Positions 8,440-16,721 of a stretch of 64,000 nucleotides of DNA are shown one piece after another. The stretch comes from Clostridia bacterium (GTDB lineage Bacteria > Bacillota > DULZ01): the NCBI GenBank assembly GCA_012840125.1, contig DULZ01000044.1, positions 17,975-81,974 on the forward strand, in the 5' to 3' direction. A program made the position numbers and the translations under genes. The notes under the pieces were generated by a model. The model had not been told where the DNA came from and ran no database searches. It saw only the letters and a list, made by a program, of their open reading frames with translations. Position 1 is the first letter of the stretch. Each line of letters begins with the position of its first letter.

Positions 8440-11400
8440 CTAAAAAGTCTTGCCCGGCTGCCAGCGGGAGAGCCGCGCGGCAATGATCCCGTGTCCCCGG
8501 TCCTGGACGGTGCCTTCCACCAGGATGAGACCGCTTCTTTGGCCGTAGATCTCCTGCCCGTAGCGCTGGTAAATGTCTTCAAACACCGTCACATCAACCA
8601 GGCCGTATTCATCTTCCACTGAAAAGAAGACCACCGTTTTGCCGCTCCTGGTAGGCGGGCGGTGGGGCCGCACCAGTATGCCGGCGATTTTCACCGCCGC
8701 CCCGGGGGGAAGCTCCCTGACACTGCGGCTGTGCTGGAACCCTTGCTGCTGCAACCACTGCCGGTAGTACGCCAGGGGATGGCAGCGCACATCAATCCCT
8801 AACACCTCTTTTTCCTGCCGGTGTTTTTCCCAGGGGGTGAAATCAGCGGCGATCCGCTCCTCTGCCACCGGCACCAGACCCGTTTCCTCTACTTGCTCCA
8901 AAAGGGGCACCTGCCAGAGGAGCTGCTTCCGGTTGGGATGGAGCCCGTCAAAAGCCCCGCTTAAAATCAGGTTTTCCAGGATGTGCCTGGGGGCCTTGAT
9001 CCTCTTTTGAAAATCAACAATAGAAGTATAAGGTTGGCCTGCTAAAATGGCCTGCAGCACCTCCCGGCTCATGCCCTTAACCTGGGCCAGGGAAATGCGG
9101 ATGGCGCCGTCCTCCACCAGAAAAGCGGCGCCGCTTTTATTGATATCCGGGGGCAAGATGGCAATCCCCCGGCGGCGGGCTTCCACGCATAAGGTATTGG
9201 CATCGTAATAGCCCATGGGCTGGTGGCTTAAGAGGGCGGCGAAATAATAAGCCGGGTAGTGACACGCCAGGTAAGCGGAGCGATAAGAGGTATTGGCGAA
9301 AGCCGCGGCATGGGCTTCACAGAAACCGTAGCTGGCATACCCCAAAATACAGCGAAAAATATCCTCCGCCACTTTTTGGTCCACCCCTTGGGCCTGGGCT
9401 TTGGCCACAAAGAGCTTTCCCAGCTCCTCCATTTCCTTCCGGGACCGGGAATGGCTCATCACCCGCCGCATCCGGTCCGCTTCTCCCCGGGTAAAACCGG
9501 CGACGGCGGTGGCTATTTCGATCACCTGCTCCTGGAAGAGAATAACCCCCCGGGTTTTTTTAAGGATCGGCTCCAGCTTGGGATGAAGGTAGGTGACTTC
9601 CTCCAAACCAAGTTTTCGCCGGATAAAAGGTTCCACCATGTCGCCTTTAATGGGCCCCGGTCTAATCAAGGCCAGGCTGGCCACCAGGTCCTCCTGGGTG
9701 GAAGCATGCAGGCGCTGCTGCAGGGCTCGCTGGGCCGGGCTTTCCAGTTGAAACACCCCGATAGTTTCCCCCCGGTTGATCATTTGGAAGGTGGCTTCGT
9801 CCACCGGCGGTATCCGCTCCTCGCAGAAATCTTCCCGTTCCCCGGTAAGAACCCGGACGGTATCCTCCAGCACCGACAACATCCGCAGGGAAAGGAGGTC
9901 CAGTTTCAGGAGCCCCAGTATTTCCACCCCATCTTTATCAAATTGGGTGACCACCACCCCTTTAGCCGCCCGCTGCAAAGGGGTGATGTTCGTTAAAGGC
10001 TGCCGGCTGATCACCAGTCCTCCCAGGTGGGTCCCCATAAACCGGGGCAGTCCCGCCACCTGCCCGCAGAAATGAAACAGCTGTTGGTACTTTTCCCCTT
10101 TAAGATCGCTTTTCCGGAGCTCCGGCAAGCGCTCCAAGAGGGCGGGAATAGCATCGGCATACGCATGGGGAAACAACTTGGCTATCCGGTCCAATTCTTC
10201 CGGCGCCAATCCCATGGCCCGGCCCAGGTCCCGGATGGCCGAACGGGCTTGAAAAGTATTGTACGTGCCCACGGAGGCCACATGCTCCGCCCCGTACTTC
10301 CGGTAAACGTAATCCGCCACCTGATCCCGGTAGCGGGCGTCAAAATCAATGTCAATATCCGGCTGCTCCCCTCTTTCCCGGCTCATGAAACGCTCAAACA
10401 AAAGCCCTCTCTCCAGCGCATCCACTTCCGTAATATACAAGCAGTAGCTGACCAGGGAATCCGCCGCCGAACCCCGGCCGGCATAGCGGATACCCTGCCG
10501 GCGAGCGAACATGGCCACATCCCATACCAGCAGGAAGTAGTCCGCATAACCCAGCTCATTGATCACCACTAATTCATAGTCCAACCGCTCCCGCACCCGG
10601 CGGCTGAGTTTCCCGTAGCGCCGGCGGGCACCCTCATACACCAGGCGCCGCAAGAAGCTCTCCGCCGTCTCCCCCGCCGGCAAAGAAAACTCGGGATAAT
10701 GCTTGGCGGACAGATCCAGGGGCGCCTCGCATTTCTCCGCTATCAAAAGGGTGTTTTGCACCGCTTCAGGATAATCCCGGAAAAGCGCCTCCATTTCCGC
10801 CGGTGTCTTAAGGTAATTCTCCTGGTTTAACGGGCGGTCCGGATGGATATCCGCCAGCCGGGTCAGGGTGCGCACGCAAGTTAAAAGATCATGCACCGGG
10901 AATTGCTCCGGCTCGGCGTAGTGGACGTTATTAGCGGCTACCAGGGGCGCGCCCGTCACCTGGGATAGCTGGGCCAGGCAGCGGTTTAAAGACCGGTCCC
11001 CGGGCAGCATGGTTTGTTCCAGTTCCAGGTAAAAATTTTCCCGGCCGAAAATGTCCTGGTACCGCCGCACCCGCTCCAGGGCTTCCCGGTACCTTTTTCT
11101 TAAGAGTAAAAAAGGAATCTCTCCCTTCCGGCAGCCGGACAAAGCGATTAAATCGCTATGGTATTCTTTCAGAGCAGCCAGGGTGACCCTGGGCTGTCCC
11201 CGGGGGTGATCCAGGTGGGCCCTGGTGAGAAGCCGGCAGAGGTTGGCATAGCCGCCGGCATTTTGGGCCAGCAGCACCAGGTGAAAGCCCTGCTCCAAAG
11301 TAACCTCGGCCCCGATGATGGGCCGGATCCCTACCTTTTGGCAGCGTTCCTGGAAAAAAGGCGCCCCCGCCACGTTGTCGTGATCCGTCAAGGCCAGGGC

Positions 11401-11508
11401 CGGCATCCCTAAGGCCGCCGCCTTGTCCACCAGTTCCTCCAGGCGGCTCGCCCCGTCTAAAAAAGAAAAAGGGGAATGAACATGTAGATGAACGAAATCC
11501 ACGTGCAT
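8440..11508 (-). CDS. dnaE2: Error-prone DNA polymerase III alpha subunit (DnaE2 type)
   Basis: PHP domain (HLHVHS, TDHD), RGSAADS, PDIDIDF, HLGG, FQLES, GFCEAHA, C-terminal OB fold; in a LexA-boxed cassette. Confidence 0.92.
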   Translation of the reverse strand: MHVDFVHLHVHSPFSFLDGASRLEELVDKAAALGMPALALTDHDNVAGAPFFQERCQKVGIRPIIGAEVTLEQGFHLVLLAQNAGGYANLCRLLTRAHLDHPRGQPRVTLAALKEYHSDLIALSGCRKGEIPFLLLRKRYREALERVRRYQDIFGRENFYLELEQTMLPGDRSLNRCLAQLSQVTGAPLVAANNVHYAEPEQFPVHDLLTCVRTLTRLADIHPDRPLNQENYLKTPAEMEALFRDYPEAVQNTLLIAEKCEAPLDLSAKHYPEFSLPAGETAESFLRRLVYEGARRRYGKLSRRVRERLDYELVVINELGYADYFLLVWDVAMFARRQGIRYAGRGSAADSLVSYCLYITEVDALERGLLFERFMSRERGEQPDIDIDFDARYRDQVADYVYRKYGAEHVASVGTYNTFQARSAIRDLGRAMGLAPEELDRIAKLFPHAYADAIPALLERLPELRKSDLKGEKYQQLFHFCGQVAGLPRFMGTHLGGLVISRQPLTNITPLQRAAKGVVVTQFDKDGVEILGLLKLDLLSLRMLSVLEDTVRVLTGEREDFCEERIPPVDEATFQMINRGETIGVFQLESPAQRALQQRLHASTQEDLVASLALIRPGPIKGDMVEPFIRRKLGLEEVTYLHPKLEPILKKTRGVILFQEQVIEIATAVAGFTRGEADRMRRVMSHSRSRKEMEELGKLFVAKAQAQGVDQKVAEDIFRCILGYASYGFCEAHAAAFANTSYRSAYLACHYPAYYFAALLSHQPMGYYDANTLCVEARRRGIAILPPDINKSGAAFLVEDGAIRISLAQVKGMSREVLQAILAGQPYTSIVDFQKRIKAPRHILENLILSGAFDGLHPNRKQLLWQVPLLEQVEETGLVPVAEERIAADFTPWEKHRQEKEVLGIDVRCHPLAYYRQWLQQQGFQHSRSVRELPPGAAVKIAGILVRPHRPPTRSGKTVVFFSVEDEYGLVDVTVFEDIYQRYGQEIYGQRSGLILVEGTVQDRGHGIIAARLSRWQPGKTF

Positions 11509-11512
11509 TCAC

Positions 11513-11758
11513 CTAGTCGTAGATTTTGTAAATAAACCAGGCATCCTGCCGGGTATCCAGGTAAATCTCAAAAATACTGCCCTGTACCGCGATCACGCGG
11601 TAAAAGATTTTCGTGTTTTCCCCCTCCCACCAGCAGCCCGCATCCTTCCAGCAGTCCAGAATCCGCTGGATGGGGTAGTAAGTTCCACGCCAACCAAAGC
11701 CCGCCGGCTTTCCCTCTTTTAACCGGACTTTAACGGGACATTCCAACACCCTACTCAT
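11513..11758 (-). CDS. DUF6504-like small protein
   Basis: FGWRG..YPIQRILDCW...GCWW, W-rich C-terminus; between imuB-like gene and dnaE2. Confidence 0.7.
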   Translation of the reverse strand: MSRVLECPVKVRLKEGKPAGFGWRGTYYPIQRILDCWKDAGCWWEGENTKIFYRVIAVQGSIFEIYLDTRQDAWFIYKIYD

Positions 11759-12806
11759 ATGCCTCTCTCCTAAACCGCCAGGGATCATAAAAAGCCAGCA
11801 TCTGCTCCCGCCGGCTCTTACCCCGGTTACCGGCCCGGTCCAAAAAACCTGCCGGGTAATCCTTGCGCAGCCTGGCCAGAAGCCTATTCAACTGCTCCTC
11901 TTTGGCCCGCGCCGCCTGGTTGCCGAACAGGTTCAATTGCTTGGCCGCCATGGGCTCCAAACCGCCGGCTTCCAGGTACATTTCCTTAGGCGGAGCTGTT
12001 AAACCAAGTTTTTGCCAGAGGCGAAAGGTTTCGTCCGCTAAACAAGCCCCGGAACTGCAAGGTTCGGTGAACAGCCGTTTTTGCATAAAAAGCGTTCCTT
12101 CCCGGCTCACTCCCGCCAGGATTAATTCCCGGCAGCCAAGCCATCTCGCCGCCAGGACTTGCGCCAGCTTTCCCGCTGCTGTTTCCAAAGCCGCCGTTAA
12201 ATCGGCGTCTTCGTCTTCCCGGTAAACGGGAATCCGGATGCTCTCTTGCGGCAAGTTCAAGCTGTTAACCCACTTCCCGTGGGACAAATCCCAGGCAAAA
12301 TAAGCGTCCTGGCCGAGATGGGTTTTTAATTTGGCCGGGGATAGAGCGGCGATCTCGCCCCAGGTTTGAAACCCCAGTTTTAATAAATGCTCTCTCAGCT
12401 TTAATTCCAGCGGCCAGAGCACTTCTAAAGGGAGCCTGCGCTGCACCGCCCCTGCCCGGTCCGAAGATAAGAAAAGCAAAGTCCCTTGCGGCTTTTCCTC
12501 CAGGACCAGTTCGGGAAACAGGGCTGCTCTTGTTCCCAAAAGGCTAAGCGCCCTGGCTAATAACTTGGAGGGAGCCAAGGCCAGAGTCGCTTTTTGCCCG
12601 TAGGCAGGGATCAAGGCTTCCCATATTCTATGGGCTAAGGGCCACGCCGCCTCTTCCTTGCCCAGGTCCAAGAAGAACTCCCGGGGACTGTAGGCTTCCA
12701 AATAGGGAGTGAATTGTTGATAAAAAGAGATGAGAGACTTTCTTAAGGCATAGGCATGATGCTGTTCTACAATTTCCTCGTTATCGACGGTAATAAAAGC
12801 GATCAT
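11751..12806 (-). CDS. ImuB-like inactive Y-family polymerase accessory protein
   Basis: FTPYLEAYSPREFFLD, LAPSKLLAR, LPLEVLWPL, LGFQTWGEIA, C-terminal QLNLF clamp motif; no catalytic N-terminal Asp motifs. Confidence 0.75.
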   Translation of the reverse strand: MIAFITVDNEEIVEQHHAYALRKSLISFYQQFTPYLEAYSPREFFLDLGKEEAAWPLAHRIWEALIPAYGQKATLALAPSKLLARALSLLGTRAALFPELVLEEKPQGTLLFLSSDRAGAVQRRLPLEVLWPLELKLREHLLKLGFQTWGEIAALSPAKLKTHLGQDAYFAWDLSHGKWVNSLNLPQESIRIPVYREDEDADLTAALETAAGKLAQVLAARWLGCRELILAGVSREGTLFMQKRLFTEPCSSGACLADETFRLWQKLGLTAPPKEMYLEAGGLEPMAAKQLNLFGNQAARAKEEQLNRLLARLRKDYPAGFLDRAGNRGKSRREQMLAFYDPWRFRREAYE

Positions 12807-12817
12807 GGCAACTCCCC

Positions 12818-12831
12818 CGAACATTTGTTCG
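12818..12831. promoter_or_regulatory. LexA/DinR SOS box
   Basis: CGAACATTTGTTCG, matching Firmicute CGAAC-N4-GTTCG, directly upstream of the imuB-like RBS. Confidence 0.9.
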
Positions 12832-12990
12832 TTACTTTATTATATCCGGCACCGGTTTCCTTGTCAAAGGGGAAAAAAGGGAAATACTGCAATGTTTTGG
12901 TTAAATTATCGTTGTTAATTCATAACCTGATTGTAATAATTTTGCAAGTAAATTGAATCCTGCTTGTTATTTTTCGCACTATTCATAAAT

Positions 12991-13035
12991 TAGGACATTT
13001 GTCATGTTTTCTTCCGGCAGTAAAGCTGTTAAACT
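12991..13035 (+). promoter_or_regulatory. Putative activator-dependent promoter of small ORF 13171
   Basis: Inverted repeat GACA-TT-TGTC (12994-13003) upstream of extended -10 TG-t-TAAACT (13027-13035). Confidence 0.4.
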
Positions 13036-13170
13036 GTAATCAAAAAAAGGAACTAAGGAAGAGCCCATAGTCCTATTCTGGAGGCTGAGCTTCTCGCCAA
13101 GCCCCAAGAAGGAGTCAGAGGCCGTCATCCTAAAGCTGGAGTCCTAAGAGACCGAAGGAGGTGTTGAGCA

Positions 13171-13320
13171 GTGGATGTTATGCTGCTCATGCTGGGTTCC
13201 GCAGTTTCGGCAGAAACTTTAGGGGTGAGGTTTTCTGGCTATCTAGGAGTAGGACTATTATTTATTCTCTGTTTGACTATGATTTACGGCTTGACATGCG
13301 GCCTGTTATTCTATAGCTAG
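13171..13320 (+). CDS. Small hydrophobic protein A, 49 aa (not in ORF track)
   Basis: AGGAGGTG RBS 7 nt before GTG; MDVMLLMLGSAVSAETLGVRFSGYLGVGLLFILCLTMIYGLTCGLLFYS; strong terminator directly after the stop. Confidence 0.7.
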   Translation: MDVMLLMLGSAVSAETLGVRFSGYLGVGLLFILCLTMIYGLTCGLLFYS

Positions 13321-13365
13321 AAAAGCAAAATCCATTCTGCCTAAGCGGAATGGATTTTGTTTTTC
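13321..13365 (+). terminator. Intrinsic terminator
   Basis: 15-bp stem CAAAATCCATTCTGC/GCGGAATGGATTTTG followed by a T-run. Confidence 0.85.
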
Positions 13366-13398
13366 TCCCTCGCACACCAACTCTAAGGAGGGATCGGC

Positions 13399-13566
13399 AT
13401 GTTCTTGATAATTTCGGCTTTGGCGATGCTGGTTACGGCTTTATTATCCCATCGTTTCGGCGCCAGATTCCTGTCTTACACGGCCCTATGCCTGGGCACC
13501 GTCACATCCTTTTCCCTTTGCGTCTTAACCGCCCTCGGGATCGGGCAAGCATTTACTCCCTTTTAA
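13399..13566 (+). CDS. Small hydrophobic protein B, 55 aa (not in ORF track)
   Basis: TAAGGAGG RBS before ATG; MFLIISALAMLVTALLSHRFGARFLSYTALCLGTVTSFSLCVLTALGIGQAFTPF; overlaps the response regulator 3' end by 14 nt. Confidence 0.6.
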   Translation: MFLIISALAMLVTALLSHRFGARFLSYTALCLGTVTSFSLCVLTALGIGQAFTPF

Positions 13567-14194
13567 AATTCAGCCGTTGCGCCAACACGGCGGCTTGGGA
13601 ACGATTAGTCAGGTTGAGCTTGCGGAAGATATTGCTCACGTAATTACGCACGGTTTTTTCACTCAAAAACAAGCACTGGGCAATTTCCTTATTGGTTTTA
13701 GCCTCCGCAATCAGGGCTAAAACCTTTTTTTCTTGTTCCGTCAACCCGGCCAGCTCCGGGGGATCCTGCCGGCGGATTTGCTCCCGCATCGCCGCCACTT
13801 GCTCCTTGTCCAGCAAGCTCTCGCCCTGGTACACCTTTTCAATGGATTTAATTAAATCCCCGCTCCAAACCTTTTTCAGCACATACCCTTCCGCCCCCGC
13901 CAGGACGGAGGCCATCACCGCTTCTTCATCCGCATAGGAAGTGAGCATAATGACCTTGATGGACGGATCCTGGCTGCGAATCTCCCGGCAAGCCTCAATC
14001 CCGGACATCTCCGGCATCCGCACGTCCATAATCACGATATCCGGTTTGAGTTTTAATGCCTTGTCCACCGCCTCCCTGGCACCGGCGGCTTCCCCTACCA
14101 CCTGCAGGTGCTCCTGGCTGTCAAACAAAGCCCTCAACCCCAAACGCACCACTTCATGATCATCCACGATCAAGAGAGATATTTTCCGGGACAA
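13553..14194 (-). CDS. NarL/LuxR-family response regulator
   Basis: IVDDHEVVR, MDVRMP, LTEQEKKVL...LFLSEKTVRNYVSNIFRKL HTH; likely TTG start at 14194. Confidence 0.93.
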   Translation of the reverse strand: MSRKISLLIVDDHEVVRLGLRALFDSQEHLQVVGEAAGAREAVDKALKLKPDIVIMDVRMPEMSGIEACREIRSQDPSIKVIMLTSYADEEAVMASVLAGAEGYVLKKVWSGDLIKSIEKVYQGESLLDKEQVAAMREQIRRQDPPELAGLTEQEKKVLALIAEAKTNKEIAQCLFLSEKTVRNYVSNIFRKLNLTNRSQAAVLAQRLNFKRE

Positions 14195-14236
14195 AAAAAC
14201 ACCCCCACCGAGCAATTAATCCCACATATTTACCGG

Positions 14237-15655
14237 CTAAGAACCCTGTTTCAACATGACCAAAGGAATCCTCATCTGGATCTTCGTTCCCTGGGACGGC
14301 CGGCTGGTAATGCTGAATTCCCCGCCCAGGTTTTTCACCCTTTCCGCCATATTATTCAGTCCCCGGCCGGACAAGGCGTCGCTGTCCATGATTTCATCCA
14401 TTTGGAACCCGCGGCCGTCATCGGCAATGGCGATATACAACTGTTCACCTTCCTGGCATATATTAATCGAAGCTTGCCTGGCCTGGGCATGACGGGCAAT
14501 GTTGGACAGGGCTTCGCGGAAAATATGAATCAGCTCCTGAGCCTTACGGGGATCGAAACTAATGGTATCCTCGGCCACCTGGTAAGAAAGCTGGACCTGG
14601 ATACCGCTGGCGGAAAAGCTTTCGATTAAATTCATCAGTTGATCAGGCCACTTAAGACTCCCTTCTTCCGGCTGGGTTAAATCGAGAATGAAATACCTGA
14701 TATCCCTAATAGTCCGGTCCAAATTATCCATGACGTTGGCAATGATTTCTTTCCCTTTGGCGGGAGACACATCGATAGTGGTATTGGCCACTTCCAGGCT
14801 GAGCCCGATGGCATATAAAGATTGGATGACCCCGTCGTGGAGATCCCGGCCGATGCGCAGGCGCTCTTGTAAAATCGCCTCCCGCTGCTCCGCCTCGGCC
14901 AGCTTTTTCCGGTTCTCCACATTAAAAATTTCCATAACCCTGATGATGAATCCTGCCATCCCCAACCCGGCAATGGTCCGCAGGATACCTGCCAGGGAAC
15001 TGTACCAGGCACCGGAGAAAAAGGTTAGCAAAGGAGCGTTGGGCACCTGGAGACCGCAAGCCAGGGCATACAGGCAAAAACTGGTAATAACTCCATAGAG
15101 GTTTGGTACGAGATTAGGCAAACCTACACTGCTGAATTCTTTCGCTTGCACGGTTAGAGCCAGCGCCGCTAAAATGGAACCGGGCAGCGCCAGCAAGAAT
15201 CTCGACCAGGTCAGGGCGACATGCAGCCACTGAATCCTGCCGGGTGAATAACTGAACATAAAGATCCCCAGCCACAACAACGATAGAAAGACTACCGTCA
15301 CCCGCAGGTAATAATCCTTTCCCAAAACCAGGGTGAGCACCTCTACGGCAAACCAGTAGAGCATACAGTAGGAGACGGTATTGAGGAGCACTTCCCCCAG
15401 GGTAAACCAAAAAGTTAAGTAACCCGGCACATGAGGGGCCATGCTCAGGGGAATAAAAGCACCGGCCCACTGAGCCAGCCCTTGGCACAAGCCGAATAAT
15501 CCCAACAGCCAAATTTTTTTTACTATTTTTAAATCGCTGAGGTGCTTGTACTGCTGGAACTGCAGCAGGATAATAAACCCCATCATGAAAAAAAGGAGCC
15601 CAGTGATAAAACCGGTAATATTAAATAAACGCTGGAAGGTCAGGAACAGCTCCAT
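14237..15655 (-). CDS. Membrane sensor histidine kinase (HisKA_3 type)
   Basis: Multiple N-terminal TM helices; ERLRIGRDLHDGVIQSL H-box; EALSNIARHA, DDGRGF, GRGLNNM. Confidence 0.92.
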   Translation of the reverse strand: MELFLTFQRLFNITGFITGLLFFMMGFIILLQFQQYKHLSDLKIVKKIWLLGLFGLCQGLAQWAGAFIPLSMAPHVPGYLTFWFTLGEVLLNTVSYCMLYWFAVEVLTLVLGKDYYLRVTVVFLSLLWLGIFMFSYSPGRIQWLHVALTWSRFLLALPGSILAALALTVQAKEFSSVGLPNLVPNLYGVITSFCLYALACGLQVPNAPLLTFFSGAWYSSLAGILRTIAGLGMAGFIIRVMEIFNVENRKKLAEAEQREAILQERLRIGRDLHDGVIQSLYAIGLSLEVANTTIDVSPAKGKEIIANVMDNLDRTIRDIRYFILDLTQPEEGSLKWPDQLMNLIESFSASGIQVQLSYQVAEDTISFDPRKAQELIHIFREALSNIARHAQARQASINICQEGEQLYIAIADDGRGFQMDEIMDSDALSGRGLNNMAERVKNLGGEFSITSRPSQGTKIQMRIPLVMLKQGS

Positions 15656-15762
15656 CCCGGTATCTCCTGTTGCGGAAATATAACACAGTATTGCAACTTT
15701 ATTATACGCCACGGCTATATTGATTGACAAGGGCGGCCAAGCCGGAGTTCAAGGGCTTGCGG

Positions 15763-15805
15763 TGCGAAATGGATCACATCTTTTTGCTGCCTGAACTGTT
15801 ATAAT
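15763..15805 (+). promoter_or_regulatory. Class II Crp/Fnr-type promoter
   Basis: TGCGA-N6-TCACA (15763-15778) centred at -41.5 relative to extended -10 TG-t-TATAAT (15797-15805). Confidence 0.6.
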
Positions 15806-15836
15806 TGAAGGGAGTATGCGAAGGAGGGGATGCAGC

Positions 15837-16721
15837 ATGAAATGGGATCCGGAAGCGGCACAGCGATTAGAGAGGGTTCCCTTTTTTATCAGGAAAAAAG
15901 TGAAAAGGCAGATTGAAGAATATGTAGCGGCTCAGGGAAAGGACATTGTCACCAGCGCCGATGTCACCGCCGCCAGGCAGCATTTCACCGGGGGCAGTAC
16001 TTTAACCACGGGCCAGGAAGAATTGTCCCAGCTGGATTTAGACAGGATCAGGGAGCTGGTGGAAAAAGGAGTTCCCACGGAAGCACTGGATACCAAATAC
16101 ATCAAATTCCGCCTCTGCGGCGGAGCCGCCGGGTGCCCCTTAAATCTCATGGACCAGATGAAACCCTATGCTGCGAGGCTGGCGGAAATTGCCCGGGAAC
16201 AGGGCTTGGAGACCTTTTTGGCCGGCAGCCACGACGGGCCGGTGCTCTTCCATCACCAGTTCAAGATCACTTTGTCCGGCTGTCCCAACAACTGTTCCCA
16301 ACCCCAAATTGCCGATTTTGCCGTCATCGGACAAGCCAGGCCTTCAGTCACCGGTGCCAAGTGCAACGGCTGTGAGCTTTGCGTCAAGGCCTGCAAGGAG
16401 AACGCCCTTACCGTGGACGATAACGGCCCCCACTTTGACGACGCACTATGCCTTCTATGCGGTGACTGCACCAGGTACTGCCGGAAAGAAGTCATCGTCA
16501 ACGGGCCGGAAAGATACCGGGTGTTAATCGGAGGGAAACTGGGCCGCCACCCGCACTTGGCTATCCCCTTGGCACTGGAAGCTGCCTGGGAGGAAGTAGA
16601 AGACCTGCTCCGCAAAACCATCGTCCTCTATCAAACCCAAGCCCTGGACGGGGAGCGCTTTGGGGACCTGGTCCAGCGTCTGGGAGATGACCGGGTCATT
16701 AAATTGATACGGGAACAGTAA
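15837..16721 (+). CDS. Siroheme/[4Fe-4S] sulfite-reductase-like (AsrC/Dsr-like) protein with N-terminal PCP_red-like domain
   Basis: CGGAAGC and GCPNNC siroheme-cluster motifs; ferredoxin motifs CNGCELCVKAC, CLLCGDCTRYC; GGKLG; N-terminal WDPEA...VPFFIRKKVK. Confidence 0.78.
   Translation: MKWDPEAAQRLERVPFFIRKKVKRQIEEYVAAQGKDIVTSADVTAARQHFTGGSTLTTGQEELSQLDLDRIRELVEKGVPTEALDTKYIKFRLCGGAAGCPLNLMDQMKPYAARLAEIAREQGLETFLAGSHDGPVLFHHQFKITLSGCPNNCSQPQIADFAVIGQARPSVTGAKCNGCELCVKACKENALTVDDNGPHFDDALCLLCGDCTRYCRKEVIVNGPERYRVLIGGKLGRHPHLAIPLALEAAWEEVEDLLRKTIVLYQTQALDGERFGDLVQRLGDDRVIKLIREQ

Follow-up and report, generated by a model that had tools for sequence, protein, structure and literature searches.

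RESULTS

Layout of the locus

Within a stretch of 64,000 nucleotides from a Clostridia bacterium (assembly GCA_012840125.1, contig DULZ01000044.1, positions 17,975 to 81,974 of the forward strand) we analyzed a locus in which two small open reading frames (ORFs), ORF A and ORF B, converge on the genes of a NarL-type two-component system. This whole stretch is called the window, and all coordinates count from its first letter. The original prediction, made from the letters alone, described the two ORFs as unannotated, mutually similar small membrane proteins and proposed that they are the outputs of the adjacent sensor/regulator pair. All sequence features that it named were recovered. The locus contains the following features:

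12930-12986, + strand: conserved intergenic upstream block, with 50% invariant columns against 7-12% in neutral spacers
12992-13005, unstranded: palindrome AGGACA-TT-TGTCAT, a putative operator for the NarL-type regulator, recognized by its conservation
13027-13035, + strand: extended -10 element TGTTAAACT, conserved as TGnTA[AT]A[CT]T in 6 loci
13043-13170, + strand: 5' leader of about 129 nt with 74% invariant columns, in which covariation supports a hairpin
13171-13320, + strand: ORF A, 49 amino acids (aa), GTG start, MDVMLLMLGSAVSAETLGVRFSGYLGVGLLFILCLTMIYGLTCGLLFYS, identified by dN/dS (the ratio of nonsynonymous to synonymous substitution rates) and orthologues
13321-13365, unstranded: bidirectional intrinsic-terminator-like hairpin, with an invariant stem and stable folding energies
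13385-13392, + strand: Shine-Dalgarno (SD) sequence of ORF B, AAGGAGGG, conserved as [AG]GGAGGG
13399-13566, + strand: ORF B, 55 aa, ATG start, MFLIISALAMLVTALLSHRFGARFLSYTALCLGTVTSFSLCVLTALGIGQAFTPF, identified by dN/dS and orthologues
13553-14215, - strand: response regulator of the NarL/LuxR type (Response_reg and GerE domains, Pfam)
14237-15655, - strand: sensor histidine kinase of 472 aa (HisKA_3 and HATPase_c domains, Pfam)
15701-15730, - strand: sigma-70-type promoter of the kinase/regulator operon, TTGTCA-18-TATAAT, 11/12 match

The source genome that we searched comprises 2.47 Mb in 106 contigs. Orthologous loci came from two metagenome-assembled genomes of the same family (G003 and G005), a JGI contig (L052) and Logan contigs (L044, L053-L058 and L059); L052, L044 and L053-L059 were reached through searches with the small proteins, and L063-L066 through kinase orthologues of 63-78% identity. 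Altogether 11 orthologous loci in 9 distinct versions were available. All orthologues belong to two closely related genera, and the covariation and similarity statistics reported below rest on few independent events. The order ORF A, hairpin, ORF B is kept in 11 of 11 kinase-orthologous loci, including L044, a contig that holds only part of ORF A.

Two conserved protein-coding genes

ORF A and ORF B are genuine protein-coding genes under purifying selection, because dN/dS is low, variation is dominated by third codon positions, the frames are kept open and a screen for small ORFs singles them out. By the Nei-Gojobori method dN/dS amounts to 0.08-0.26 for ORF A and 0.08-0.18 for ORF B, at dS values that range from 0.3 to more than 2 (saturation). 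Both frames are open in the 9 distinct orthologous versions. At codon positions 1, 2 and 3 the fractions of invariant columns in a five-sequence alignment are 0.71, 0.82 and 0.41 for ORF A and 0.50, 0.77 and 0.12 for ORF B. When two orthologous loci were screened for SD-preceded hydrophobic ORFs of 30-90 aa, solely ORF A, ORF B and an alternative in-frame start of ORF B in L052 were recovered, and the same screen gave two weak matches in 52 kb of unrelated kinase loci. The orthologues of ORF A, aligned from five other loci, are 63-88% identical (more copies lie in L063-L066 and a partial one in L044), and those of ORF B show 62-76% identity. Conservation at the codon level and in synteny, which the original prediction implied, is thus borne out, and so are the strong ribosome binding sites that it had noted for both ORFs: AAGGAGG at 13155-13161, 9 nt before the start of ORF A, and AAGGAGGG, 6 nt before that of ORF B. 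Third codon positions are 41% invariant in ORF A against 12% in ORF B, and this high invariance suggests an additional constraint inside ORF A at the level of the RNA.

The family of ORF A and ORF B is restricted to two genera of Clostridia from digesters, both uncultured. When 1.84 billion proteins were searched with a profile, two representative clusters only were recovered, both of this clade, and a scan of contigs across genomes found G003 and G005 alone. Metagenome scans with DNA patterns, one including the leader and one including the hairpin, gave zero matches. There are no paralogues of ORF A or ORF B in their own 2.47-Mb genome, and neither has a significant match in Pfam, NCBIfam, PHROGs, PADLOC or the PDB. 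Two candidate relatives were rejected as chance-level: the Pfam family 7TM-7TMR_HD for ORF B (E=0.038; its 14.3 bits fall short of the cut-off, 29.4) and FLVCR1 in the PDB for ORF A (E about 9). No homology of the two proteins to the transmembrane (TM) domain of the kinase was detected either. The description as unannotated holds insofar as the proteins are nameless; it does not hold for gene calling, as both ORFs had been predicted as hypothetical proteins by the gene callers of other assemblies.

Membrane character and resemblance of the two proteins

Both proteins are very hydrophobic, with grand average of hydropathy (GRAVY) values of 1.4-1.5, and are probably located in the membrane. With D, E, K and R as the residues counted, ORF A has a net charge of -1 and ORF B one of +2. 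The original prediction had assigned two hydrophobic stretches to each. For ORF B this agrees with the AlphaFold monomer model, which shows a helix at residues 2-20, a break at G21 and a second helix at 22-51 (predicted local distance difference test score, pLDDT, 74). For ORF A the first of the two stretches has 12 residues only, and a single helix is modelled (pLDDT 81). On the packing of a hairpin the monomer models are uninformative.

As to the mutual similarity of the two proteins, the picture is mixed. BLASTP of ORF A against ORF B returned zero alignments at E<=100. Comparison of profiles by hhalign gave P=0.006 with 3 and 4 sequences and P=0.002, at a probability of 13%, with 6 and 7 sequences, and Smith-Waterman scores exceeded those of composition-preserving shuffles (p about 0.002-0.03) in 10 of 12 pairs. 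In the alignment the two proteins match at the loop motif (G-x-R-[FLV]-x-x-[YF]), at an LG that comes after it and at an LC in the second helix. The motif G-[VA]-R-F-x-x-Y that had been proposed for the loop is present in the window, but it broadens among orthologues to G-[VL]-R-[FLV]-S-G-[YF] in ORF A and [GN]-x-[RK]-[FL]-[LI]-S-Y in ORF B. The claim of similarity is therefore weakly supported by profiles and shuffles and not by BLASTP, and from this weak similarity it is plausible that ORF A and ORF B are distant paralogues.

A module inherited together with its sensor kinase

The regulator matches Response_reg and GerE in Pfam with E-values of 2e-29 and 2e-20 and probably starts at the TTG at 14194, giving 213 aa; in NCBIfam it comes nearest to MadR, MctR and NarL, without reaching the cut-off of any of these models. 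The N-terminal ~250 residues of the kinase contain about 7 TM helices joined by short loops only. Residues 1-255 match no Pfam or NCBIfam model, and homologues of this part with 28-42% identity are scattered across the phylum. The catalytic half is nearest to the NCBIfam models MctS, LiaS and MadS, all far below their cut-offs.

All kinase orthologues, at 63-86% identity, have ORF A and ORF B beside them. Of 6 genomes of the family, 3 (the source genome, G003 and G005) contain both ORF B and the orthologous kinase, and neither is present in G001, G002 and G004. In G001, where the only kinase found is a paralogue-level one of 31% identity, the corresponding site is empty (L051, C8:79500-87000): an imuB-like gene directly adjoins a NIR_SIR/PCP_red gene and tandem multihaem cytochromes, the genes that border the module in the window, and the four genes are absent. 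Conversely, the four genes stay together though the left neighbour changes in L059 and the right neighbour in G003. Because of this joint presence and absence, the empty site and the cohesion despite changed flanks, we have good evidence that ORF A, ORF B, regulator and kinase form one co-inherited insertion/deletion module, which would act as a single functional unit. The proposed tie to the adjacent two-component system is in this respect supported, by co-inheritance in 11 loci and joint absence in three genomes.

The neighbourhood on the right and related kinases elsewhere may also be mentioned. The gene at 15816-16721 encodes a 301-aa protein with a PCP_red N-terminus (like the 57-kD protein of protochlorophyllide reductase), a NIR_SIR 4Fe-4S domain and ferredoxin-like motifs, and it adjoins the module in most loci. 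In the source genome, C30:6500-13500 (L039) carries a paralogous array of regulator, kinase and regulator in which the kinase belongs to the same 7-TM sensor family (31% identity). The array adjoins a twin-arginine translocation (TAT)-signal Fe-S protein and a large membrane protein, and a similar arrangement with a multihaem cytochrome is found in G020 (L042). Respiratory modules may be a frequent target of this sensor family.

The peptide receptor ComP is one of the polytopic HisKA_3 kinases that work with NarL-type partners. ORF A and ORF B might be exported or processed signal peptides, or precursors of a two-peptide antimicrobial, sensed by the polytopic kinase in an autoinducing circuit akin to ComX/ComP-ComA or the three-component bacteriocin regulators. 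As in ComQXPA, a polytopic HisKA_3 kinase and a NarL-type regulator stand beside small peptide genes, here two adjacent ones behind an activator-type promoter, and the N-terminus of ORF A resembles a signal peptide (...AVSA/E). However, this N-terminus has an Asp in place of a positive n-region and its AxA site is lost in L059; the peptides are uniformly hydrophobic to the C-terminus, neither cationic nor amphipathic, and membrane-like rather than secreted. Genes for modification, export or immunity are lacking from the module, among them one for a ComQ-like modifying enzyme, and the peptide genes are convergent with the kinase/regulator pair, whereas in ComQXPA they lie upstream. Nor do the proteins qualify as class IIb or leaderless two-peptide bacteriocins, since there is no double-glycine leader and no ATP-binding cassette transporter or immunity gene in any locus. 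We regard a role as signal or antimicrobial peptides as very unlikely.

Promoter and palindrome upstream of ORF A

The original prediction had placed an extended -10, a leader of ~130 nt and an inverted repeat at about -43 upstream of ORF A; all of these were found and all are conserved. With the -10 at 13030-13035 and the transcription start inferred to lie near 13042, the centre of the palindrome falls at about -43.5 and the leader measures about 129 nt. The -35 element is weak or unrecognizable and its poor position is overlapped by the palindrome, so that a palindrome at about -44 combined with a poor -35 presents a putative activator-dependent promoter geometry. In five aligned sequences the invariant fraction is 0.50 in the upstream block, 0.89 in the 19-nt palindrome block, 0.12 in the spacer from palindrome to -10, 0.67 in the extended -10, 0.11 in the start-site region, 0.74 in the leader, 0.65 in the hairpin with its T-run and 0.07 in the spacer before the SD of ORF B. 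The palindrome core is invariant in 6 of 6 full-length aligned loci, and the 2.47-Mb genome has no second copy of the palindrome even when 2 mismatches are allowed. A look-alike at C28:1688, considered as a second site of a regulon, proved to be part of a terminator hairpin.

NarL sites are 7-2-7 inverted repeats, with a layout comparable to that of the palindrome. GerE regulators of the LiaR/CesR type recognize inverted repeats whose arms are 2 bp apart and which lie next to an A-stretch (PMC4447274), and the site described here shows the same x-2-x layout with an adjacent A-rich stretch, although the sequence differs. We infer that the palindrome is bound by the regulator of the module.

Further upstream lie several TTG[TC]NA[TG] heptamers (TTGTAAT at 12932, TTGCAAG at 12943, TTGTTAT at 12964, and one at 12999 that forms the right arm of the palindrome). 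They are spaced by about three helical turns and are conserved in six loci, one of which (L059) has a different left neighbour; they may be extra half-sites for the regulator or an UP-like element. An antisense 49-aa ORF at 12979-13128 was dismissed as a gene, as it is not conserved and suffers 1-nt indels between orthologues.

To the left of the module the window carries a cassette for SOS mutagenesis on the - strand (8440-12867), consisting of an imuB-like gene (11751-12824) whose product is a Y-family pseudo-polymerase, a DUF6504 gene (11513-11788) and a DnaE2-like gene (8440-11508). Its promoter (12867..12839) matches the consensus at 12/12 positions, and positions 12818-12831 form a perfect Gram-positive LexA (Cheo) box, CGAACATTTGTTCG, which the terminator scan had misread as a hairpin. 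Only three full LexA boxes of this kind occur in the genome.

These surroundings bring up the possibility that the palindrome is bound by another factor, either a repressor at +1 or a LexA-like protein, and that the co-inheritance with the two-component system reflects a shared role only. Nearly all loci that extend far enough do have the imuB-like/dnaE2 cassette on their left, the palindrome shares the centre ACATTTGT with the true LexA box, and an alternative promoter, TTGTTA (12964-12969)-16-TAAATT, is fairly conserved and would have the palindrome at its transcription start. The likeness to the LexA box is, however, confined to that centre: true boxes of this genome read CGAACAT[AT]TGTTCG, and the palindrome departs from them at 5 of 14 positions, with both GAAC/GTTC arms broken, so that we rejected it as a LexA box. 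L059 keeps the whole promoter region though its left neighbour is not imuB, the downstream extended -10 is the better conserved promoter element, and the four genes are gained and lost together. Independent control of this kind seems to us improbable, and regulation by the module's own two-component system is the reading that we follow.

A shared hairpin and a predicted overlap of transcripts

The ORFs A and B are separated by a long AT-rich hairpin with the stem AAAATCCATTC/GAATGGATTTT, followed by TTTTGTTTTT; the stem is flanked by an A-tract on its 5' side and a U-tract on its 3' side. The folding energy (ViennaRNA) is -30.8 kcal/mol on the + strand and -24.7 kcal/mol on the - strand, so the hairpin looks like a terminator in both directions. 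Its stem is invariant in all loci, with a loop of 4-11 nt. The simple terminator scan overlooked it because the loop exceeds 8 nt; nevertheless, a stable stem-loop with a following T-run that is kept in orthologues has what an intrinsic terminator requires, and the strong terminator that had been claimed between the two ORFs is confirmed in these terms. Between the stop codon of ORF A and the regulator gene the same scan found no other terminator on either strand.

The final 14 nt of the regulator gene overlap the 3' end of ORF B in the window, and an overlap of 4-14 nt exists in every locus. Because of this tail-to-tail overlap of the genes, and with the shared hairpin as the only terminator, the transcripts are predicted to overlap obligatorily: the kinase/regulator mRNA must run antisense over the whole of ORF B up to the hairpin, ORF B must then be situated entirely within the 3' untranslated region (UTR) of this mRNA, and any mRNA of ORF B must in turn extend antisense into the regulator gene. 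No conserved promoter was found between hairpin and ORF B, where the spacer of 14-40 nt is only 7% invariant, and expression by read-through of the hairpin, as originally proposed, would therefore most simply account for ORF B. Such read-through would yield more product of ORF A than of ORF B. Candidate hexamers for an internal promoter of ORF B within ORF A were set aside, as they are not conserved. Three features go beyond the original prediction: the two-way form of the hairpin, the predicted position of ORF B inside a 3' UTR and the sequence conservation of the leader.

A conserved leader RNA

Near its 5' end the leader has a purine-rich SD-like box, and RNAalifold folds 13056-13131 into a long imperfect hairpin. 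This hairpin has three compensatory pairs (GC/AU, UA/CG and CG/UA), and as much covariation as observed arises in only 2 of 500 shuffles; all three changes split the same two clades. Of the alignment cells in the hairpin 93.7% are paired, against 30-50% when the partners are slid. The single-sequence folding energy of the leader is unremarkable (z-score -0.24 versus shuffled sequences). The SD and the GTG of ORF A are held in small invariant stems, where GAGCAG at 13165-13170 pairs with CUGCUC at 13183-13188 around a variable loop and the GTG start is located at the base of this invariant 6-bp stem. The leader as a whole, its unpaired stretches included, has an invariance on par with first codon positions, and this constraint far exceeds what a simple stabilizing hairpin would call for. 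An upstream ORF was rejected: the leader lacks ATG, GTG and TTG, and 1-nt indels between orthologues break every frame.

It might thus be possible that the leader is a new cis-regulatory RNA which senses a ligand or protein and gates the translation of ORF A, a reading that is compatible with two-component control. The invariance of 74%, unpaired stretches included, the three compensatory pairs and the invariant stems around SD and start codon are in line with this. On the other hand, there are only 6-9 closely related sequences and the folding energy is no better than that of shuffled sequences. The Rfam scan of 12500-16000 returned nothing at E<=1 but a chance microRNA match within the kinase gene, and a covariance model of the leader (R1) run against 61 genomes found this locus alone and no wider RNA family. 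With one copy per genome, at this locus only, a gene-specific leader fits better than a riboswitch class, and we consider a riboswitch-like function rather doubtful.

The structured leader and the antisense overlap also recall type I toxins. ORF A, ORF B or both could be toxin-like membrane peptides, with the leader occluding the SD and start of ORF A and the 3' UTR of the kinase/regulator mRNA serving as the antisense RNA to ORF B; the two-component system would then be linked solely through the RNA overlap. As in type I toxin-antitoxin systems (TxpA/RatA, BsrG/SR4) and excludons, the mRNA of a small and very hydrophobic ORF is predicted to be complementary over its full length to a convergent transcript, which must span ORF B entirely. 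The locus also has a long 5' UTR, conserved and structured, that places SD and start codon within small invariant stems. It is, moreover, lineage-restricted and single-copy. However, the antisense partner would here be the 3' UTR of a signalling operon rather than a dedicated small RNA (sRNA); neither a dedicated antisense promoter nor an sRNA was found, and nearby the minus strand has a single promoter-like match (9/12, 13005..12978), which points away from the ORFs. The peptides lack the usual single TM helix with a charged tail, the locus is in tight synteny with a signalling pair and is not mobile or multi-copy, and there were zero matches in PADLOC or PHROGs. We therefore judge a toxin function unlikely.

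DISCUSSION

We consider it possible, at a confidence somewhat short of even, that the kinase/regulator pair controls ORF A and ORF B as its dedicated output. In the mechanism that we propose from sequence comparison, the seven-TM kinase, having no extracellular domain, would read a membrane-borne cue and phosphorylate the NarL-type regulator, whose dimer would bind the single palindrome at about -44 and turn on the weak extended -10 promoter. The transcript would consist of the structured leader and ORF A and would mostly end at the hairpin, with a read-through fraction that includes ORF B. The A and B proteins might then insert in the membrane as helical micro-proteins and represent the only output of the system. 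Their likeliest route of action would be association with each other and with the membrane domain of the kinase in a feedback of the MgrB/PhoQ style; alternatively they might act directly on the membrane. The antisense overlap of the ORF B mRNA and the kinase/regulator mRNA could add mutual damping at the RNA level. The specific role in kinase feedback, suggested by analogy, is held with less confidence than the regulatory link itself. A more elaborate combination, in which a hairpin heteromer of A and B gates the 7-TM kinase while the two mRNAs act as mutual antisense RNAs and the leader serves as a cis-regulatory RNA for a second input, strikes us as improbable.

Several observations weigh against control of ORF A and ORF B by the adjacent system or against its details. 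The palindrome is absent from the promoter of the kinase operon and from the rest of the genome, and so it lacks the logic of a regulon. The alternative upstream promoter would place it at +1, in the position of a repressor; this promoter is fairly conserved, yet less so than the extended -10. The AlphaFold monomer models give no established hairpin for ORF A. The conservation of the leader suggests an additional regulator that the model leaves unexplained. Finally, no A/B-like ORFs lie nearby at 7 loci with more remote kinases of this sensor family (30-42% identity); the sensor fold is therefore not generally partnered by the micro-proteins, which appear to be a lineage-specific addition to the sensor system.

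MgrB acting on PhoQ/PhoP, SafA, PmrR and KdpF acting on KdpD are small membrane proteins under two-component control that bind a sensor kinase. The KdpF-KdpD pair has been reviewed (PMC10730256). The locus described here resembles MgrB-PhoQ in that a micro-protein of ~50 aa is encoded apart from the kinase operon behind an activator-dependent-looking promoter, with a dedicated sensor/regulator pair adjacent, and the expected logic would likewise be a feedback loop within the membrane. In contrast to MgrB, the A and B proteins share no sequence similarity with it and are not members of the MgrB or SafA families by Pfam and NCBIfam. There are also two proteins rather than a single one, the 7-TM HisKA_3 kinase lacks a periplasmic domain, and the genes are convergent and overlap the regulator gene.

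Other similarities connect the module to LiaFSR, CesSR and VraSR. Here, too, a HisKA_3 kinase is paired with a NarL/GerE regulator (Pfam), the catalytic half of the kinase scores best against the MctS, LiaS and MadS models, a very small regulon would lie beside the system, and the putative operator consists of inverted arms set 2 bp apart, beside an A-rich stretch (PMC4447274). However, the kinase reaches 103 bits against a cut-off of 450 for Strep_LiaS, and all NCBIfam scores are far below cut-offs. The TM helices of the sensor number about 7, against 2 in those systems, the module contains no LiaF-like gene, the 49- and 55-aa proteins are unrelated to LiaI or LiaH, and the palindrome is not TCAGHCTnnAGDCTGA. 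By analogy, the arrangement of micro-proteins and kinase would work like known circuits while lying outside every described family.

Since the family is restricted to two genera, the reach of these findings is limited to this lineage. The four genes with their regulatory DNA and RNA fit in ~2.7 kb, which is small enough for the whole module to be transferred to a laboratory host. Small membrane proteins of such kind routinely escape annotation, and their tuning of sensor kinases, well documented in enterobacteria, is barely known in Gram-positive anaerobes. In conclusion, the locus provides a comparatively validated case in which two micro-proteins, a single-target operator-like site, a leader RNA and a predicted obligatory antisense overlap come together beside one sensor kinase and may serve it as a dedicated output.

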